Under the pieces are notes generated by a model. That model was not told where the DNA came from. It searched no databases and was given only the letters and a program-made list of their open reading frames with translations. DNA of 44,018 nucleotides, taken from sequence record NC_047806.1, one strand, 5' to 3'. The first letter of the stretch is position 1. Every line of letters starts with the position of its first letter. Shown here piece by piece: positions 21,389 through 40,601 of the stretch. A program made the translations under genes and the position numbers. This DNA comes from Escherichia phage vB_EcoP_B.

Positions 21389-21530
21389 CCTCTTTAACCT
21401 CCTTTAATGTAGAACGTGCATATCTGTTAGCATCGCCGTAAGCGTTAGGCGTGTATTGCGAGGTTTCATGGCCAGCAAACCACGCATCGACTAAGAGTTG
21501 CTTTAGTTGGTCTTCAGTCAACTGAATCAT
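21375..21530 (-). CDS. early small protein (51 aa); not in ORF track
   Basis: ATG 21528-21530 with AAGGAG SD; overlaps both neighbours. Confidence 0.35.
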   Translation of the reverse strand: MIQLTEDQLKQLLVDAWFAGHETSQYTPNAYGDANRYARSTLKEVKEDVSA

Positions 21531-21699
21531 TACTTAACTCCTTCATCAAGTCACGTTTCTTGTTAACTGTATCGGTCCAACTTTCGTTCAGGAAGCGGTG
21601 ATACAGTGCCAACTCGTCATCTGTAAGTAATTCGTTGTTACGAATCATGTAGCATAACAGAGTGAAGAGAACGGACAGTTCACGGTTATTTAATGTCAT
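21514..21699 (-). CDS. first early protein (about 61 aa)
   Basis: ORF track 21514..21741 trimmed to ATG 21697-21699 with GAGGTG SD. Confidence 0.45.
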   Translation of the reverse strand: MTLNNRELSVLFTLLCYMIRNNELLTDDELALYHRFLNESWTDTVNKKRDLMKELSNDSVD

Positions 21700-21758
21700 A
21701 GTTAACACCTCATTCAATAAGTAATTAACCACGGCATACATAGGTTACACTAAGCAAA

Positions 21759-21808
21759 TTGTTAAAGAGCAAGGCAACATAAGTCACCTACCGTTTGGCT
21801 ATGTTGCC
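21759..21808 (-). promoter_or_regulatory. early-mRNA processing-site candidate (hairpin + GCTCTTTAACAAT)
   Basis: inverted repeat GGCAACAT/ATGTTGCC adjacent to the 13-mer. Confidence 0.4.
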
Positions 21809-21821
21809 TCCCGATGGCTGT

Positions 21822-21850
21822 AATGTACTACTAGCTTTTGCCTGTGTCAA
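21822..21850 (-). promoter_or_regulatory. candidate host sigma70 early promoter
   Basis: minus strand TTGACA - 17 nt - TACATT, upstream of first early gene. Confidence 0.5.
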
Positions 21851-21915
21851 CACTAAGTTTCACTAAGATAGACTATTTATGTGATACATGTCACAACTAC
21901 TAAGACAAACCTAGG

Positions 21916-22085
21916 TTGTCTAACGTGTGAGACTAAGGAAAAAAAAAAAAAAAAAAAAGCAATAGATACAGAGCTAGGATAGGCTAGATTGGCTAGGTAT
22001 TCCAAACGTGAAGGGGAGAAAAAGGAAAAAAAAAAAAAAAAAAAAGCAATAGATACAGAGCTAGGATAGGCTAGATTGGCTAGGT
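21916..22085. repeat. tandem direct repeat (two about 87-bp units) each containing an A20 tract; probable genome-terminus / terminal-repeat junction
   Basis: 62-bp exact repeat GG-A20-GCAATAGATACAGAGCTAGGATAGGCTAGATTGGCTAGGT at 21937-21998 and 22024-22085; lies between last late gene and first early gene. Confidence 0.7.
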
Positions 22086-22185
22086 TTCTGGTGTTCCTCC
22101 TACTGCATCTTATCACTATTACCTACTCTCAGCGGTCTACCGACCGCGACCTAATTGCATCTTATAGCTTTAGCTATGCAATCAC

Positions 22186-22320
22186 TAAGGTCTGGCACTA
22201 AGACTAACTAAGGTACACTACTAAGTTGATACTAAGCTAAGCACTAAGGCTTTAACTAAGGCAACCCACTAAGGCTAACCTAAGCCATCCATCAAGGAAT
22301 AACCTAAGGTACACGTGAGC
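22186..22320. repeat. dense array of CTAAG-containing short repeats (11 copies in 135 bp)
   Basis: cactaagg, cactaaga, aactaagg, ... ; further copies scattered 21845-23060. Confidence 0.7.
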
Positions 22321-22847
22321 GAGTGAACGGAGCGCAAGCGGAGTGAGGAGCAGTGAGTGAAGCGTAGCGAAACGAACAGATAGCCCACACCCTCATGCCC
22401 TGTCAAACGCTCAGGAATGGCCCTAAAACGGCCTGTGTAAGCCCTAAGCGGTTGCACTAAGGCAATCACCTTGTCCAATACTAAGGCGCGCCCTAGCGCT
22501 TCCTAGGTGTTCTCCTTGTGCAGCCACTAAGAGCAGACCTCGGCAAGCTCTAGGCCACCCGTCGAGCTTCCTGCGGCAGCAGGTTGAAGACGGACCAGCC
22601 CAGCCCAATTCCCAAGCCAACCGCAGCGCGGCCCCATATGGGGGAAATCCGGCGAGGGCGAGGGCGAGAGAGCTGACACACGCCTATATCAAAATTTTGA
22701 CTTTGGTTACTTTGTGACCACCTTTGGTCTGCCCTTTTGGTTACACTAAGATTATTCCTGCTAAGTACAGGTACACCAGCAGTGGGCCATAGATACATGC
22801 TGTGCATAAGAGGGCTAACAGTAGGTCTTTCATGTTACCTCATTTGA

Positions 22848-23003
22848 TTACACTAAGTCGAATCCATTGGGTTGCTTCAGGTAAGCCTGTACAGTTCCAC
22901 CAAGAACCTTCTGGCTAGCCAGTGCAGACTCTTCAGTGTCATGTATCTTCCTGAGTACCTTACGTTTGAATGGGCCGACTCCATAAGTATGAATCCAAAT
23001 CAT
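22848..23003 (-). CDS. small ORF (51 aa) downstream of tailspike; tentative
   Basis: ATG 23001-23003 with strong SD AAAGGAGG; stop lies in a TTACACTAAG repeat. Confidence 0.3.
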   Translation of the reverse strand: MIWIHTYGVGPFKRKVLRKIHDTEESALASQKVLGGTVQAYLKQPNGFDLV

Positions 23004-23196
23004 CAAACCTCCTTTGGGTTGCACTAAGGGCCAACCTAAGCCAGCCCTTGTGCAGACTAAGTGTTACTGCTTCGCAGACGATGCAGAGGCCTTACTCAAT
23101 ACTCTACGTTGAACATCCTTGGCAATGGCATATGCCTGCTTAGGGTCACGTCCTGATTGAATAAGCTCTTCTGTGTTCTGGAGTACAGCAGCTTGC

Positions 23197-25632
23197 TTAA
23201 CTGGTTTTATTAGTGGCATACATCTCCTCTAACTTGTCTAAACGATAACGAGTATAAGCAGCCTCCAAGATTAAGATTTCACTATATCTAACACCAAACT
23301 GACCTTCTTCGAAGGAGACAATGCCGAAGTCGATTGCATCTAACCCTTCGGATGCAAAAGCAGCTACAATGTCTTGTGCCAATACACCAAAGTGAGTGTG
23401 ATGCACACCACTAGACATCTCTCCAATCAACTTGTACTGCTTGAAGGCAACCTTGCCCCATGCCTTTAGTACACCCTCATCAATACCTTGTGATCCATAC
23501 TTATGAGTGGCATCAGACGTAATAATAGGGTCACTTGTAAGATGGATAGTAGTGAATCTATTACGAGGGCCGCCAGCAGGATACACGTTATCATTGTATG
23601 GCATGATAGCCCCGCTTTGGAACAAGTGCTCATTGGCATTATATACTGCGCGTCTAGAAGTACTAGAACCTGCTCCATGTAAGGTAATTTGCGCACCGGT
23701 ATCTGCTGCTGTACCCTCTCCACCAGAGATGATGACACGTTGGGCAGTTGGGTTATCCGTTGGTATAGTCTTACCAATGAACCCATATTCACCTTCCATC
23801 AGCATCTCTGAGCGAATATTAGCACTTGTACTTGCCTTCAGGGTAAGGTGTTCGACAGTCATATCTGCGGCAACTACCTCTCCTGATAAGTGAAGTGGAG
23901 CAGGAATAGTACGAATACCATCAGTACCCATGAAGGTAGGTATAGCCTGACCCGGAGTTGCACCATATGTAAACTTACGAGATACACGATTGTCATTTGC
24001 AATCTGCATCTTATAGCAGTATATATCAGTGGGGTGTCCATGACCTTTAAATGGGTCTTTATCTTTGTTGTCACCATAAGTCATTGGGTTGAAATGGTTT
24101 TCTCCACCAAAGATATAGTAAATGTAGCTGTCTTTAACTACTACCGAACCTACACCTACACTAGAGTTCACAATGTCACCCTGATAGATTTGGTCTGTGA
24201 TGTTAACCCATTCAATGTCATCTGCATTCCACTTGTTTACATTCAATCGTGCATAGAAGGTACGAGGATAAGATGCCTTGTAACGATCATCGGGTGCACC
24301 TGCTTCCCATTCATTTTCTGCACGTTCTGAACCAAACATAATAAGGTCATCTCCTACTTTAGCAAAAGGTAAGGTAGTATGATGAACATTATGTGGAAAT
24401 CTTAGTGACTCCCAAGTTTGACCTATATCTCTACTACGATGCAGAGAGCTTCCTAGTCGATCGCCACGAGTACCACGAGTGATAAGGTACAATACACCGT
24501 CATAGTACTTGATGCATGGCTCTGCCGCATCTGGTTCATACTCAGATGGTATCTGACGACGAACATAATTAGATGGGCTATTGAAAGCATCAGGGAAGTA
24601 GAAAAGCCCAACTTCTCGTGGAGCTACATCACCTTGATGATAGCCCATAACAAAGCCATTGTTATCAATAGTAGCAAAGCTATGCACCTCTGTGACACGA
24701 GTGATTAGACCAAGATCTGTCTTACGCCAAGGAGATTTATGGAAAGAAGTACCCATGTGCCAACTCTTTCCAGCGTTATTCAAATCTGAAGTCTGCTGGT
24801 TAGGTGTAAGAACCGTGAAGTTGTCCTTATCTATTACTGTTGCAACCTTCATATCACCAGATACACCTGTTACCGCAGAGTTAGAGAAGTTAACAAAATC
24901 ACCAACGAAGAGTCCGTGATCAGGTACATGGATTGTTGCATATCTCTGATTTGCAGCCTTAGTGATACCACCAGTAAGATGCAGACTACGAGACATAGGG
25001 CGATCCCACAATGCACAATTGGTTAGTGCGTTCTTGGCTAAAGTACGTGTTTCAATCATGGCAAACAGACGGTTGCGACATACACCCATACTCATACAAT
25101 GATAGTTCACTGTAGGGTAATCTGGATGCAGATCAGTTAACCACTCTGGAGTAGACCATGTTTGACCATCGTCACCAGACTTAACCCATGATACATGCAG
25201 ACGACTAACACCATGACGGTCGCTACCCATGTAAGGTGCATATATCACGTTCTCATATACAAACGCTTTGTCTTGAGGCCAAGCATTGTAATAAGGGTTA
25301 TCCGTGATTTTATAGAGTTCACCATTGATAAAACCTTTACTCACATAGTAAAGAGGTTGACCTGCTAAACGTTCCCATACGAAGCGGGTGTTATAGAATC
25401 GCTCCATATCAGGTAAAGATGATACTTTGTAAGTAGCACCAGCACCGTCAATTCTCTTACCTGAAGCCATCGCTGCATTTACTGCATCTTGGTCGTTTGT
25501 CTTACCATCACCTTTGGCTCCAAAATCTTTAAGCGATACAACCTCGGTGAGCTTGTCATCCAAGTTACGCCAGATTGCACCTGCTATTTTACTCTTGAAT
25601 TTAACTAATGAAGAACCTAGTCTTTGAATCAT
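23197..25632 (-). CDS. tailspike with endosialidase (endo-N-acetylneuraminidase) catalytic domain, 811 aa
   Basis: ORF track; two sialidase Asp-boxes SGDDGQTW and SRDIGQTW; C-terminal chaperone-like segment; AAAGGAGG SD; last structural gene before genome end as in K1E/K1-5-type phages (from memory). Confidence 0.8.
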   Translation of the reverse strand: MIQRLGSSLVKFKSKIAGAIWRNLDDKLTEVVSLKDFGAKGDGKTNDQDAVNAAMASGKRIDGAGATYKVSSLPDMERFYNTRFVWERLAGQPLYYVSKGFINGELYKITDNPYYNAWPQDKAFVYENVIYAPYMGSDRHGVSRLHVSWVKSGDDGQTWSTPEWLTDLHPDYPTVNYHCMSMGVCRNRLFAMIETRTLAKNALTNCALWDRPMSRSLHLTGGITKAANQRYATIHVPDHGLFVGDFVNFSNSAVTGVSGDMKVATVIDKDNFTVLTPNQQTSDLNNAGKSWHMGTSFHKSPWRKTDLGLITRVTEVHSFATIDNNGFVMGYHQGDVAPREVGLFYFPDAFNSPSNYVRRQIPSEYEPDAAEPCIKYYDGVLYLITRGTRGDRLGSSLHRSRDIGQTWESLRFPHNVHHTTLPFAKVGDDLIMFGSERAENEWEAGAPDDRYKASYPRTFYARLNVNKWNADDIEWVNITDQIYQGDIVNSSVGVGSVVVKDSYIYYIFGGENHFNPMTYGDNKDKDPFKGHGHPTDIYCYKMQIANDNRVSRKFTYGATPGQAIPTFMGTDGIRTIPAPLHLSGEVVAADMTVEHLTLKASTSANIRSEMLMEGEYGFIGKTIPTDNPTAQRVIISGGEGTAADTGAQITLHGAGSSTSRRAVYNANEHLFQSGAIMPYNDNVYPAGGPRNRFTTIHLTSDPIITSDATHKYGSQGIDEGVLKAWGKVAFKQYKLIGEMSSGVHHTHFGVLAQDIVAAFASEGLDAIDFGIVSFEEGQFGVRYSEILILEAAYTRYRLDKLEEMYATNKTS

Positions 25633-26116: not shown

Positions 26117-26137
26117 CTTCTATAGTGTCCAGTAAAT
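26117..26137 (-). promoter_or_regulatory. phage RNAP promoter (upstream of tailspike operon)
   Basis: ATTTACTGGACACTATAGAAG. Confidence 0.7.
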
Positions 26138-38199: not shown

Positions 38200-40601
38200 T
38201 AGACCCTCCTTTTGGTTGGATTGTAGCTCCCTTCCCACTCAATATCGCGGAGCTGGAATGTGTGAGGTGATTCTACAATAATACGATAAACAGCATCCGT
38301 ACTCTTAGCTCTCAGTGGGAATCTGAAGACACCTTCTCTTGGTTCAACATAACCTACTGTATTGTTGAGAGCACCACCTATACGGTTTGACGCTAGCACC
38401 CTGCGTACTTTACCACTCTTCACATTCTTAACCTCCACGGAGAAATCAGGATACATATCAAGATTAAGGTGAACCAACCCCACAACAGGTACATCAATAT
38501 AGGATACACGGTCTTGCCTATCTCTGATAACTACAGGTGTTGGTTCAAACTCTTGAGGGTAAATCTGACCAACAATAACCTTCGCTTTTACGTGGCTATC
38601 ATCATGCATATCAAAGGTTGTAGACAAGGTGTTATCACCGGGATTATATTTGAATAGGAAAGAACCACCAATATATGAATCCCACCCGTCTATTAAGATG
38701 CAATCCAAAAGCTCTGGGTTAGTAGGAGTCCAAGGAAGCGGTTCAGACACCCATTCATCTTCTGCTTTAAAATGCTTGAAGACTAACTCTGCTTGCCTAT
38801 CCATCCTAATGCGGTCATTCAAACCATAGGTTAATGCATCACCCATGTCCATCTTCTCCAGATATACGCCATCCCCTCGCTCAAGGAGTAGGTAAAGTAA
38901 TTCACCAGAATAAAATAGACCTCGCACCTTTGTACCTACAGGCCACTTCCATACATGCCATGCTGATTGTACACGGTCTGTTCCTTGCCATAACCAATCA
39001 TAGCAGTAGATTATGTTACGGTACTTATCGGTAGTGACAAGTAACCTGTTGACATTGGTGCTTGCTGCCATGTTGGTAATGTTACCTTCGATGAGTTTAT
39101 TCACATGACTTGTGATTGCTTGTGCCTTCTTAGTGTCACTATAAGAGTCTGTATAGAACTCTCGTACACCAGAGTAATAACCATCATTAGTGGCAAACAT
39201 TACCGATTCACCAGTTACTACTGGCTTCACTTTATTGTTCACTTCAAATGTTGTAACAGGCTTAAGCAATGCATTTGACTTCTCTAAAGGCTTATCGCCT
39301 GGCAGTATGAATTGTGACTTATCAGAGAACAATACGGTAGCTCCATCTAAGGTCACTGCATGTTTTAGCTGGTAAACTTCACTCGCATCTGAGAAAATAT
39401 CAAATGGGTCAGTTGCCAATGCAGAGATAACCGTATAACGAAAGAAATCGAAGAAATATGATGTACGAGAAGCAATAACCGCTTCACCTGCTGTAAAGCA
39501 TAGGCGGTTCTGCACCATGAACATTCCACCTATTGTCTGGGGTACTTCCTCATCAATAAAAGAGGGCATAGGGTTAGTCAAGTCATCCCCTACTTTACGG
39601 TCTTCCCAATCCCCTTGTCTTATCTTGAATTGAGCTATGCCGTCAATGATACCTGTACGTTCAATAATGTAAGGCATTGTGCCTTTATCAAACCCAAGTA
39701 ATACATCAGCAGCTATTGTTTCTTTCCAAGACACAAGGTTTCCCTCTTTAGGCTCAGCTTGCAGCCAGTAACGAGACTCAGGTTTGCTGCCAGTAGGCCA
39801 CACTTGTACTTTATAACCAGCAGGCGCACGAGAAGGGAGTAGGTCAGTAGAGCTAACTTTATTCTTGATAGCCACTAAGTCCTTACCTTTTGCACCATCG
39901 GTAGTTGTTACTGTGAAACTTTTACCATCGCGTCTCTCTATAAATATGCTCGTACCATCTCTTTGTATTTCATAGTCATTCACACCACTCCATTGCTGCA
40001 ACTTGGAGTACAATTCAGAAGTGATACGTTCCGTTCGTATTTGTTCAACATGTTCTGCACTTCCCCCATCTGGTGTTTTAAAACTAGCAGCTGTAGTTCC
40101 ATTAATTATGATAGAATAAGATGTACCGTATTGACCATATGCACAAAACACAATGGCTTTATCTCCAACTTTAGGTGACTTCCTATTACTAACTTTAACC
40201 ACTTTCCTACGGTTAAGCATAAAAGTAACATCAGCTATAGTCATGAATTGCACATCTTCCCTAGGGTTAACAACTTCAGAAAGGTAGGTCATAGGTGCAT
40301 CTTGAGAGGTGACATTGCACTTGCGTCCATGCTTATCAAATATCTCTGGCACTTGCCCCTTCTTTAAGGTGAAGAAATACTCTTCATCCCCCTCACCCCT
40401 GCGATAATGGTGCGTTGCCATATTATCTGTACCTTCATCCAAGAGCTTAGCAATGTGAGTTGTACCCATGCGGGATTGAGTCCCATTCACTACATCAGGG
40501 ACCATGTTCACCATAGTCGTACATTGGCCATCAAGACGTACCGCTGGTGGTTGCTGGCTAATCCCTTGGATTTGCCTCCCTAATGAACCTTGTACTTCCA
40601 T
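38199..40601 (-). CDS. tail tubular protein B (gp12-like), about 800 aa
   Basis: ORF track 38199..40631 (TTG) trimmed to ATG with GGGAGGA SD; size like T7 gp12 (794 aa); position. Confidence 0.7.
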   Translation of the reverse strand: MEVQGSLGRQIQGISQQPPAVRLDGQCTTMVNMVPDVVNGTQSRMGTTHIAKLLDEGTDNMATHHYRRGEGDEEYFFTLKKGQVPEIFDKHGRKCNVTSQDAPMTYLSEVVNPREDVQFMTIADVTFMLNRRKVVKVSNRKSPKVGDKAIVFCAYGQYGTSYSIIINGTTAASFKTPDGGSAEHVEQIRTERITSELYSKLQQWSGVNDYEIQRDGTSIFIERRDGKSFTVTTTDGAKGKDLVAIKNKVSSTDLLPSRAPAGYKVQVWPTGSKPESRYWLQAEPKEGNLVSWKETIAADVLLGFDKGTMPYIIERTGIIDGIAQFKIRQGDWEDRKVGDDLTNPMPSFIDEEVPQTIGGMFMVQNRLCFTAGEAVIASRTSYFFDFFRYTVISALATDPFDIFSDASEVYQLKHAVTLDGATVLFSDKSQFILPGDKPLEKSNALLKPVTTFEVNNKVKPVVTGESVMFATNDGYYSGVREFYTDSYSDTKKAQAITSHVNKLIEGNITNMAASTNVNRLLVTTDKYRNIIYCYDWLWQGTDRVQSAWHVWKWPVGTKVRGLFYSGELLYLLLERGDGVYLEKMDMGDALTYGLNDRIRMDRQAELVFKHFKAEDEWVSEPLPWTPTNPELLDCILIDGWDSYIGGSFLFKYNPGDNTLSTTFDMHDDSHVKAKVIVGQIYPQEFEPTPVVIRDRQDRVSYIDVPVVGLVHLNLDMYPDFSVEVKNVKSGKVRRVLASNRIGGALNNTVGYVEPREGVFRFPLRAKSTDAVYRIIVESPHTFQLRDIEWEGSYNPTKRRV

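Follow-up and report, generated by a model that had tools for sequence, protein, structure and literature searches.

Two small open reading frames that end in a terminal short repeat occupy a variable slot at the right end of a Vectrevirus genome

Layout of the right genome end

Downstream of the tailspike gene of Escherichia phage vB_EcoP_B (NC_047806.1) lie two small open reading frames (ORFs) of 51 and 30 residues, each of which terminates inside a copy of the same short repeat. The window, by which we mean the whole stretch of 44,018 nucleotides that was analysed, has its megablast matches for positions 21800-23300 in Vectrevirus (Molineuxvirinae), namely K1E, K1-5, mutPK1A2, vB_EcoP_C and vB_EcoP_K, and on such comparison it is a reverse-complemented, circularly joined podophage genome of this K1E/K1-5/SP6-like group, with all genes on the minus strand. 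Since the tailspike gene lies on the minus strand, the coding strand of the phage is the minus strand of the window. When the genome termini of K1E, mutPK1A2 and K1-5 were mapped onto it, the left terminus (TCTCGCCCTCGCC...) fell at 22669 and the right terminus (...GTGTGGGCTA) at 22381, delimiting a terminal repeat of 289 bp, in agreement with the 286-bp 'redundant repeat' annotated in mutPK1A2. Taken together, the mapping and this annotation indicate that the window has been joined circularly around a single collapsed copy of the repeat. Both small ORFs lie just upstream of its right-end copy. The features of the region, in the direction of transcription, are the following:

25632..23197, minus strand: endosialidase tailspike gene, 811 residues, from the ORF listing
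23064..23219, minus strand: gp48-like small gene, 51 residues, the first of three small ORFs after the tailspike gene, whose 3' end it overlaps
23026..23061, minus strand: first repeat unit, CTTAGTCTGCAC followed by a 10-bp stem-loop (23049..23026), from the sequence and RNAalifold
23004..23028, minus strand: junction 1, CTTAGTGCAACCC with the SD AAAGGAGG and TTTG, directly 5' of the 51-residue ORF
22848..23003, minus strand: cassette A, the 51-residue gene (MIWIHTYGVGPF...GFDLV), from phrog_3955, tblastn, alleles and AlphaFold2
22834..22857, minus strand: junction 2, CTTAGTGTAA with TCAAA, the SD TGAGGT and AAC, directly 5' of the 30-residue ORF
22741..22833, minus strand: cassette B, the 30-residue hydrophobic ORF (MKDLLLALLCTACIYGPLLVYLYLAGIILV), the last ORF before the terminal repeat
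22736..22750, minus strand: third extended motif copy, CTTAGTGTAACCAAA, comprising the last two codons and the stop of the 30-residue ORF (repeat family D4)
22670..22722, minus strand: conserved right anchor, GGTGGTCACAAAGTAACCAAAGTCAAAATTTTGATATAGGCGTGTGTCAGC, separating the slot from the terminal repeat, from alignments of about 25 relatives
22381..22669, minus strand: terminal repeat, single collapsed copy of 289 bp, from the mapped termini of K1E, mutPK1A2 and K1-5
22184..22310, minus strand: dense left-end array of eight exact CTTAGT copies and CTTAGG variants, just inside the terminal repeat

Both ORFs are present where a preliminary description of this DNA had put them, the 51-residue ORF running from an ATG at 23003 to a stop at 22848-22850 and the 30-residue ORF from an ATG at 22833 to a stop at 22741-22743, both on the minus strand. 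An ORF listing extends the former to a GTG at 23024 (58 residues), and all homologues start at MIWIHTYG. The strong SD that had been attributed to it is likewise there, as AAAGGAGG at 23015-23008 with a spacer of 4 nt to the ATG, and the 30-residue ORF is preceded by TGAGGT (22842-22837). A further small ORF at 23219..23064 separates the tailspike gene from these two; it matches phrog_2423 (E 6.7e-22), and its counterparts are annotated '48' in K1-5 and gp51 in SP6. An 85-residue ORF at 22550..22807 on the minus strand and its counterpart, annotated gp48 in K1E (AM084415), were judged spurious, because the frame extends into the terminal repeat and does not stay open in mutPK1A2.

The nearest upstream phage-type promoter is found at 26134 on the minus strand, no terminator-like site was found on the coding strand between it and the two ORFs within the scanned region, and both mini-genes are probably co-transcribed with the tailspike gene from this promoter at about 26134. 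The scan for sigma-70 promoters and intrinsic terminators stayed at chance level, and the only sigma-70 promoter-like sites on the coding strand lie in the early region near 21850. The short repeat itself was considered as a promoter for the phage RNA polymerase and rejected in this role: SP6-type promoters are TACYGGACACTATAG sites elsewhere, of which the one at 26134 is the nearest.

The 51-residue protein

Judging from profile and homology searches, the 51-residue ORF is a genuine gene and belongs to a widespread phage family, phrog_3955, with residues 1-47 aligning to profile positions 1-47 of 48 (E 9.3e-24). With tblastn, it matches 830 phage records with 35-65% identity at the protein level; the phages come from unrelated groups and include T1-like Drexlerviridae, Gordonclarkvirinae, rV5-like phages, Vequintavirinae and others, and in relatives of the window the gene is already annotated as a hypothetical protein (p62 in mutPK1A2, C_8 in vB_EcoP_C, K_19 in vB_EcoP_K and gp57 in VEc3). 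Ten distinct alleles of it were collected from SP6-like phages; 35 of the 52 third codon positions vary among them, with few amino-acid changes. The conservation of the frame in relatives, by which the preliminary description had proposed to judge it, is thus apparent both from the membership in phrog_3955 and from the ten alleles.

AlphaFold2 returns a confident model of the protein with a beta-beta-alpha-beta-beta fold (mean pLDDT 88.8); it is predicted to be a soluble mini-domain. Pfam contains no match to any of the three small ORFs, the searches of the PDB with the 51-residue protein, by sequence and by fold, gave nothing below E = 1, and the fold search of BFVD gave uncharacterised phage proteins only, the models of related small phage domains superposing with it at TM 0.7-0.86. 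The N-terminal domains of other phrog_3955 proteins (Klebsiella phage KLPN1 gp16, NBD2 gp22 and KBNP1711 ECBP3_0040) are 45-51% identical to the ORF. In KLPN1 gp16, the domain lies ahead of a MazZ-type dATP/dGTP pyrophosphohydrolase (PF04447), and other phages also have longer proteins. While the domain is elsewhere an N-terminal module with further sequence behind it, the 51-residue version consists of the domain by itself and terminates within the repeat.

The 3' 26 nt of some alleles of this gene (CCACAAGGTTTCGACTTAGTGTAACC) are a candidate captured copy of the terminal-repeat unit (GGACAAGGTGATTGCCTTAGTGCAACC). QPxxF is conserved at the protein level in KLPN1 gp16 and AlphaFold2 places a strand there, which favours a protein origin of the sequence up to about Phe48.

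A variable slot in related phages

About 25 relatives were aligned using the conserved CAAAATTTTGATRTAGGCGTGTGT as anchor, and across them the stretch from the gp48-like gene to the terminal repeat is a hypervariable mosaic. In L013 and L020 the slot contains no cassette, and CTTAGTGTAWTMCAAGGWGG is joined directly to TCACAAAGTAACC; the slot holds the 51-residue gene alone in vB_EcoP_C, VEc3, L014 and L019, this gene and a second cassette in the window, L017, L030, L031, mutPK1A2, L018, L021 and L025, and other cassettes alone in K1-5 (gp49), SP6 (gp52) and K1E (a 35-residue ORF). Overall, there are at least eight unrelated cassette types, and the cassettes in second position fall into at least seven families that are unrelated in sequence. 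Most ORFs in this second position are strongly hydrophobic over a stretch of 15 residues; homology among their peptides was considered and rejected, except within the B and D families.

The boundaries of the variable segments are sharp. On the left, the breakpoints fall exactly at the ATG, behind the conserved junction CTTAGTGTAAYCAAAGGAGGTAAC, and on the right they fall at another copy of CTTAGT or at the right anchor, which contributes the TAA at which K1-5 gp49, the 35-residue ORF in K1E and a 32-residue ORF in L018 stop. Junction 1, together with its SD and an ATG, also precedes cassette A or K1-5 gp49 in relatives, and junction 2, in which CTTAGTGTAA constitutes the last two codons and the stop of cassette A, also precedes unrelated ORFs in mutPK1A2, L018, L021, L025 and SP6. 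The contents of the slot are combined in several ways: cassette B is found behind two different alleles of cassette A, and one allele of A is followed by B, C, G or H. Compared with vB_EcoP_C, the window carries an insertion of 107 bp flanked by the direct repeat CTTAGTGTAAYCAAA, a pattern in which gain and loss are indistinguishable. A copy of the motif at the 3' end is absent from K1-5 gp49, the 35-residue ORF of K1E and the cassette of L018, and SP6 gp52 has a stop of its own. The two ORFs of the window are placed in the manner of the SP6-like slot, between the gp48-like gene and CAAAATTTTGATRTAGGCGTGTGT and behind a CTTAGTG...AAAGGAGG junction, and as far as these alignments tell, the slot is an ordinary, neatly organised variable slot for accessory genes at the right genome end.

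The short repeat and the stop codons inside it

As the preliminary description had stated, both ORFs end in ...TTA GTG TAA inside CTTAGTGTAA (TTACACTAAG on the plus strand), at 22848-22857 and 22741-22750, and this end motif does belong to a family of short repeats that clusters around the terminal repeat. The exact 10-mer TTACACTAAG occurs three times in the 44-kb window (21745, 22741 and 22848), where about 0.08 copies are expected for a random 10-mer on both strands; if one mismatch is allowed, there are 10 sites against 3.7 expected, six of them within 21745-23028. The core of the motif, ACTAAG on the plus strand and CTTAGT on the coding strand, has 35 copies in the genome, and 20 of these lie in 21700-23100, all in one orientation, with zero copies of the oppositely oriented core in that interval. 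Eight make up the left-end array (22273..22189, 10-13 nt apart), three are inside the terminal repeat, four occupy the stretch from the gp48-like gene to the terminal repeat, and the remaining clustered copies are situated further into the left-end region. In the first repeat unit, the 3' arm of the stem-loop at 23049..23026 reaches into the following CTTAGTG copy; with RNAalifold, all 10 stem pairs are retained across 10 relatives, two of them with compensatory changes.

Taken by itself, the coincidence of stop codon and repeat says little. Since CTTAGTGTAA contains stops in two of the three frames (TAA and TAG), an ORF running into the motif will usually end there, and the coincidence in a single genome is therefore weak evidence; that two ORFs should both use the TAA of the motif is about a 1-in-9 coincidence on its own. 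The alleles of cassette A add to this. Their last 11 nt (AC TTA GTG TAA) are invariant in all ten, whereas 13 of the 14 other conserved codons of four- to sixfold degeneracy vary synonymously, which indicates that the motif is kept constant by something besides the protein. This could be a function of the sequence itself, as DNA or as RNA, or homogenisation of the motif as a recombination joint.

The first of these possibilities corresponds to the reading of the preliminary description, in which coding and repeat function overlap: the CTTAGTGTAA copies would be working members of the terminal-repeat family, to which the genes accommodate themselves, and might for example bind terminase or a concatemer-processing factor. 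Such binding sites are what the SRL and SRR repeats of T7 are supposed to be, although we know of no established function even for these, and a search of the literature on SP6-group end repeats and T7 SRL/SRR, covering work other than the original SP6 and K1-5 genome papers, gave nothing relevant. The clustering of the family around the terminal repeat in one orientation, the invariance of the last 11 nt of the 51-residue gene amid abundant synonymous change, and the fact that this protein ends at the motif in Vectrevirus while its homologues elsewhere continue are all compatible with a dual constraint of this kind. However, the number of right-end copies varies with cassette content. It ranges from two to five among the relatives, with two copies in the cassette-free L013 and L020 and also in K1-5 and SP6, and four in the window, each 51-residue cassette and each 30-residue cassette of the E. 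coli type adding one at its own 3' end; the copies at cassette ends are therefore dispensable for this type of phage. Nor is a stop inside the motif obligatory, since two database homologues of the 51-residue protein (P0001 and P0004) read through an altered motif, and in the 30-residue ORF of L030 the stop within the motif is TAG instead of TAA at the same codon, with CTTAGTGTAG at the place of CTTAGTGTAACCAAA. Both the copy numbers that follow the cassettes and the read-through homologues argue against an indispensable DNA function of the cassette-end copies, and we consider it unlikely that the two functions truly overlap. What stands of the earlier claim is the overlap in sequence, together with the invariant 11 nt; for its functional part, the copy counts fit a role as cassette joints better.

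A predicted membrane peptide of 30 residues

The peptide encoded by cassette B consists of MKD and 27 mostly apolar residues (GRAVY 1.93), and is predicted to be a membrane peptide that spans the bilayer once as a single helix. A lipoprotein signal was considered and rejected, neither Cys having, by eye, a lipobox before it. An ORF in the same slot of the Klebsiella phage FBKp16 is 69% identical to it at the protein level, and pattern searches of IMG/VR and metagenome contigs add L017, L030 and L031, of the E. coli type, and L032, of the Klebsiella type. The family has six known members among the SP6-like phages of E. coli and Klebsiella, of which four are nearly identical, and in all six phages no other ORF separates it from the terminal repeat. 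The copy in vB_EcoP_K is cut off by an assembly join.

One could also suppose that only the 51-residue ORF is a gene and that the 30-residue ORF is a chance frame in a non-coding spacer which is conserved as DNA. A frame of 30 codons is open by chance about a quarter of the time, and the region is full of conserved non-coding elements; in addition, the ORF has few homologues and no match in Pfam or PHROGs, and it carries no annotation in FBKp16 and vB_EcoP_K, the two GenBank relatives that have it. The comparison of its copies nevertheless speaks against this. The frame is open and without indels in every complete copy, across 74% nucleotide identity, and each has a correctly spaced SD and ATG. 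Between the window and FBKp16, there are 13, 3 and 16 differences at codon positions 1, 2 and 3, so that second positions account for 3 of 32, and all four nucleotide differences within the core CTACIYGP are at third positions. The two Klebsiella-type copies, in FBKp16 and L032, repeat the pattern with 2, 0 and 5 differences, five of the seven differing codons being synonymous and the other two conservative replacements. Furthermore, the DNA similarity to FBKp16 begins at the SD and ATG and fades past the core, which shows that the region is not a general conserved spacer, and further tiny hydrophobic ORFs that are conserved, SP6 gp52 for instance, are found in this slot. A chance frame thus appears quite improbable, and from the coding-type substitution pattern and the conservation of the frame in six SP6-like phages, a check that had been proposed for this ORF too, we conclude that it is very probably a real gene. 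While the 51-residue gene was already on record as a hypothetical protein, the 30-residue family is new.

By analogy with gp19.5 of T7, the peptide could act late in infection at the inner membrane, where a modulation of lysis timing would be its most plausible task, an assignment that we put forward with considerable doubt. The other tiny hydrophobic ORFs of the slot may, on the same analogy, also act at the inner membrane late in infection.

A proposed explanation for the slot and its joints

The explanation that we favour, and regard as probable, is a cassette slot: two genuine mini-genes would reside in a hypervariable slot, the motif would be the junction between cassettes, and the stop inside the repeat would be a by-product of this architecture. 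That the extended motif instead serves mainly as RNA punctuation, for coupling of termination and reinitiation or as a site of RNA processing or stability, with its likeness to the end repeats secondary, is very improbable: an identity at several cassette boundaries that spans everything from CTTAGTG to the ATG, the SD included (CTTAGTGTAAYCAAAGGAGGTAACATG), and a conserved hairpin with covariation that abuts one motif copy would suit it, but the same core is dense in the untranslated terminal repeat and the left-end array, Rfam has no match in 21600-23400, the folding of 22670-23070 (401 nt) is in no way unusual (z = 0.0), and no hairpin is predicted at the two ORF-end copies.

In the cassette-slot model, each cassette would begin right behind the conserved junction CTTAGTG(Y)AA(Y)C-AAAGGAGG-TAAC-ATG and would end in the next copy of the junction or in the conserved right anchor. 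The CTTAGTGTAA part supplies the upstream gene with its last two codons (Leu-Val) and its stop, and the bases that follow supply the next gene with its ribosome-binding site. The motif, a member of the one-orientation short-repeat family found around the terminal repeat, would with its added ribosome-binding site be used as a cassette joint, and the shared Leu-Val-stop ending would simply follow from how the cassettes are built. Through the repeated junctions, acting as short homologies, recombination between co-infecting SP6-like phages may add, remove and swap cassettes, a role of the junctions that the mosaic patterns among relatives suggest.

One could go further and speculate that the terminal short repeats double as portable joints, and that the right end is a recombinase-free, integron-like array in which tiny membrane peptides that tune lysis or exclusion are traded; we consider this extension possible, with the balance tilted against it. 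If it were true, a mini-gene would travel as the unit SD-ATG...ORF...CTTAGTGTAA, in which the 3' repeat ends translation and at the same time recreates the landing site and the ribosome-binding context for the next cassette.

These results add a conserved and previously unannotated 30-residue peptide, predicted to lie in the membrane, to the gene set of the K1E/SP6-like phages, a group applied in phage therapy against K1 E. coli and Klebsiella. They also show that in the last segment ahead of the right terminal repeat tiny, mostly hydrophobic genes replace one another, which by position are analogues of T7 gene 19.5. The possible role of the terminal short repeats as cassette joints, drawn from the mosaic structure of the slot, is the only part with real potential for novelty: if the end repeats are recombination joints, they would offer a simple rule for finding mini-genes and a natural landing pad for engineered payloads, and if they are not, the slot would be a case of ordinary phage mosaicism.

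Comparison with T7 and other known systems

The preliminary description had assigned the two ORFs to the position of T7 gene 19.5. In terms of location this agrees with what is found here, both being the last ORFs before the right terminal repeat: gene 19.5 (39389-39538) is the final ORF of T7 ahead of the SRR repeats and its terminal repeat, and the 30-residue ORF stops 72 nt before the start of the terminal repeat at 22669, on the same strand as the late genes. The agreement does not extend to sequence, since BLASTP against T7 gp19.5 produced no alignment at E <= 100 for either ORF, and a permissive search produced only a 17-residue match with E 1.5. In kind, the likeness is confined to one of the two. 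T7 gp19.5 is a predicted short membrane-spanning protein (PMC2680503), and so is the 30-residue peptide (best 15-residue hydropathy 2.21, against 2.07 for gp19.5), whereas the 51-residue protein, with 0.59, is predicted to be soluble. gp19.5 has been implicated in lysis timing, and its role is unsettled (PMC2680503, PMC8365609).

The short repeats have a likeness in T7 as well, where SRL and SRR are also short repeats in one orientation, adjoining and inside the terminal repeat (CCTAAAG/CCTAAGG). We take the family in the window to be the positional counterpart of SRL/SRR and the left-end array to be the analogue of SRL. The core differs, being CCTAAAG in T7 and CTTAGT(G) on the coding strand here, and the T7 repeats start about 80 nt past the stop of gene 19.5 and do not delimit genes.

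Closer to the window, gp51 and gp52 of SP6 and gp48 and gp49 of K1-5, all of which are listed with function unknown (PMC4837284), occupy the same slot with the same junction sequences as the ORFs of the window. SP6 gp51 and K1-5 gp48 are homologous to the gp48-like ORF, and SP6 gp52 (25 residues) and K1-5 gp49 (42 residues) are tiny hydrophobic ORFs at the position of the 30-residue ORF, to which they are unrelated in sequence. Both phages are without the 51-residue gene, and neither of their last ORFs stops in CTTAGTGTAA: the stop of K1-5 gp49 is in the right anchor, and SP6 gp52 has a TAA of its own.

Finally, the arrangement can be set beside known devices for the shuffling of genes. For an integron in the usual sense, which would call for a dedicated recombinase and structured attachment sites, no additional ORF was found in or beside the slot, and no imperfect inverted repeats resembling attachment sites were found at the cassette ends. 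The PeSL elements of T4-type phages and the boundary sequences of lambdoid phages are conserved intergenic linkers that mediate the modular shuffling of phage genomes. Unlike a PeSL, which combines a promoter with a stem-loop, the joint in the window is an SD-containing sequence of 25-27 nt that includes the terminal short repeat, and unlike both kinds of linker, the slot adjoins the genome end, with recombination being what we infer here from sequence. What it has in common with them is that short conserved intergenic sequences with expression signals flank the small variable genes of a hyperplastic region, and that unrelated genes swap between identical joints.

Reading frames and secondary structure beside the tailspike gene

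The sole functional association found for the family of the 51-aa protein comes from domain fusions: in Klebsiella phage KLPN1, gp16 (L036) joins the 51-aa domain to a pyrophosphohydrolase domain of the MazZ type, specific for dATP/dGTP (PF04447, E 6.7e-33), and the same fusion is seen in a protein of Vibrio phage Vc1, identified as a BFVD match. As for the hydrophobic 30-aa ORF, its first 17 codons are identical in the closest relative, vB_EcoP_K (L005/L029, KY295897, 37,775 bp), after which that record runs on, in inverted orientation, into sequence from the terminal repeat's inner end. It also falls about 6 kb short in length, and the join within the ORF probably arose through misassembly at the terminal repeat. 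Two further features lie in this region:

22550-22807, minus strand: 85-aa ORF, overlapping the 30-aa ORF in a different frame and extending into the terminal repeat
23026-23049, minus strand: conserved 10-bp stem-loop, AAGGGCTGGC-TTAG-GTTGGCCCTT, just downstream of the gp48-like gene

The 85-aa ORF has a counterpart in K1E (AM084415, L008) at 1569-1784, annotated as 'gp48'. Since mutPK1A2 does not preserve this frame as open, we regard the annotation as probably spurious. The stem-loop carries compensatory changes at two pairs across the 10 relatives compared, and is kept in two sequences (L014 and L025) despite the loss of the neighbouring CTTAGTG copy. It could serve in the processing or stability of RNA, or form a DNA hairpin.

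Repeats and presence/absence variation at the left end

The end-associated CTTAGT motif recurs between the terminal repeat and the early genes, where the following features were found:

21754..21740 (within 21514-21754), minus strand: fourth extended motif copy, CTTAGTGTAACCTAT, preceding the first early genes
21929-22085: pair of direct repeats of 70 nt each, 87 nt apart, with 97% identity
22184-22310, minus strand: dense CTTAGT/CTTAGG array in a single orientation, copies spaced 10-13 nt
22376-22382, minus strand: ATCTGTT heptamer lying across the terminal repeat's inner boundary (GGGCT-ATCTGTT-CG)

At the position of the fourth copy, a 75-aa gene (MKVQVKAYNMPVDE...) is present in K1E, vB_EcoP_C and UTI89UKE2 but absent from the window, which amounts to a cassette-like presence/absence polymorphism at the left end, beside the same motif. 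The array sits immediately inside the left terminal repeat and, with a spacing of approximately one helical turn, looks like a multi-site protein-binding array. Between it and the early promoters are placed the direct repeats, each containing one 20-nt homopolymer (A20 on the plus strand, T20 on the coding strand); a CTTAGT copy directly adjoins the repeat copy at 21929. Long homopolymers beside the motif also occur in relatives, as T33 after CTTAGTG in one sequence (L021) and as a lysine run in a database homologue of the 51-aa protein that reads through the motif (P0004).

By sequence search, ATCTGTT was found once here. In T7, the identical heptamer directly follows the terminal repeat, where it constitutes a class II RNA-polymerase pause/termination signal and is implicated in concatemer processing.
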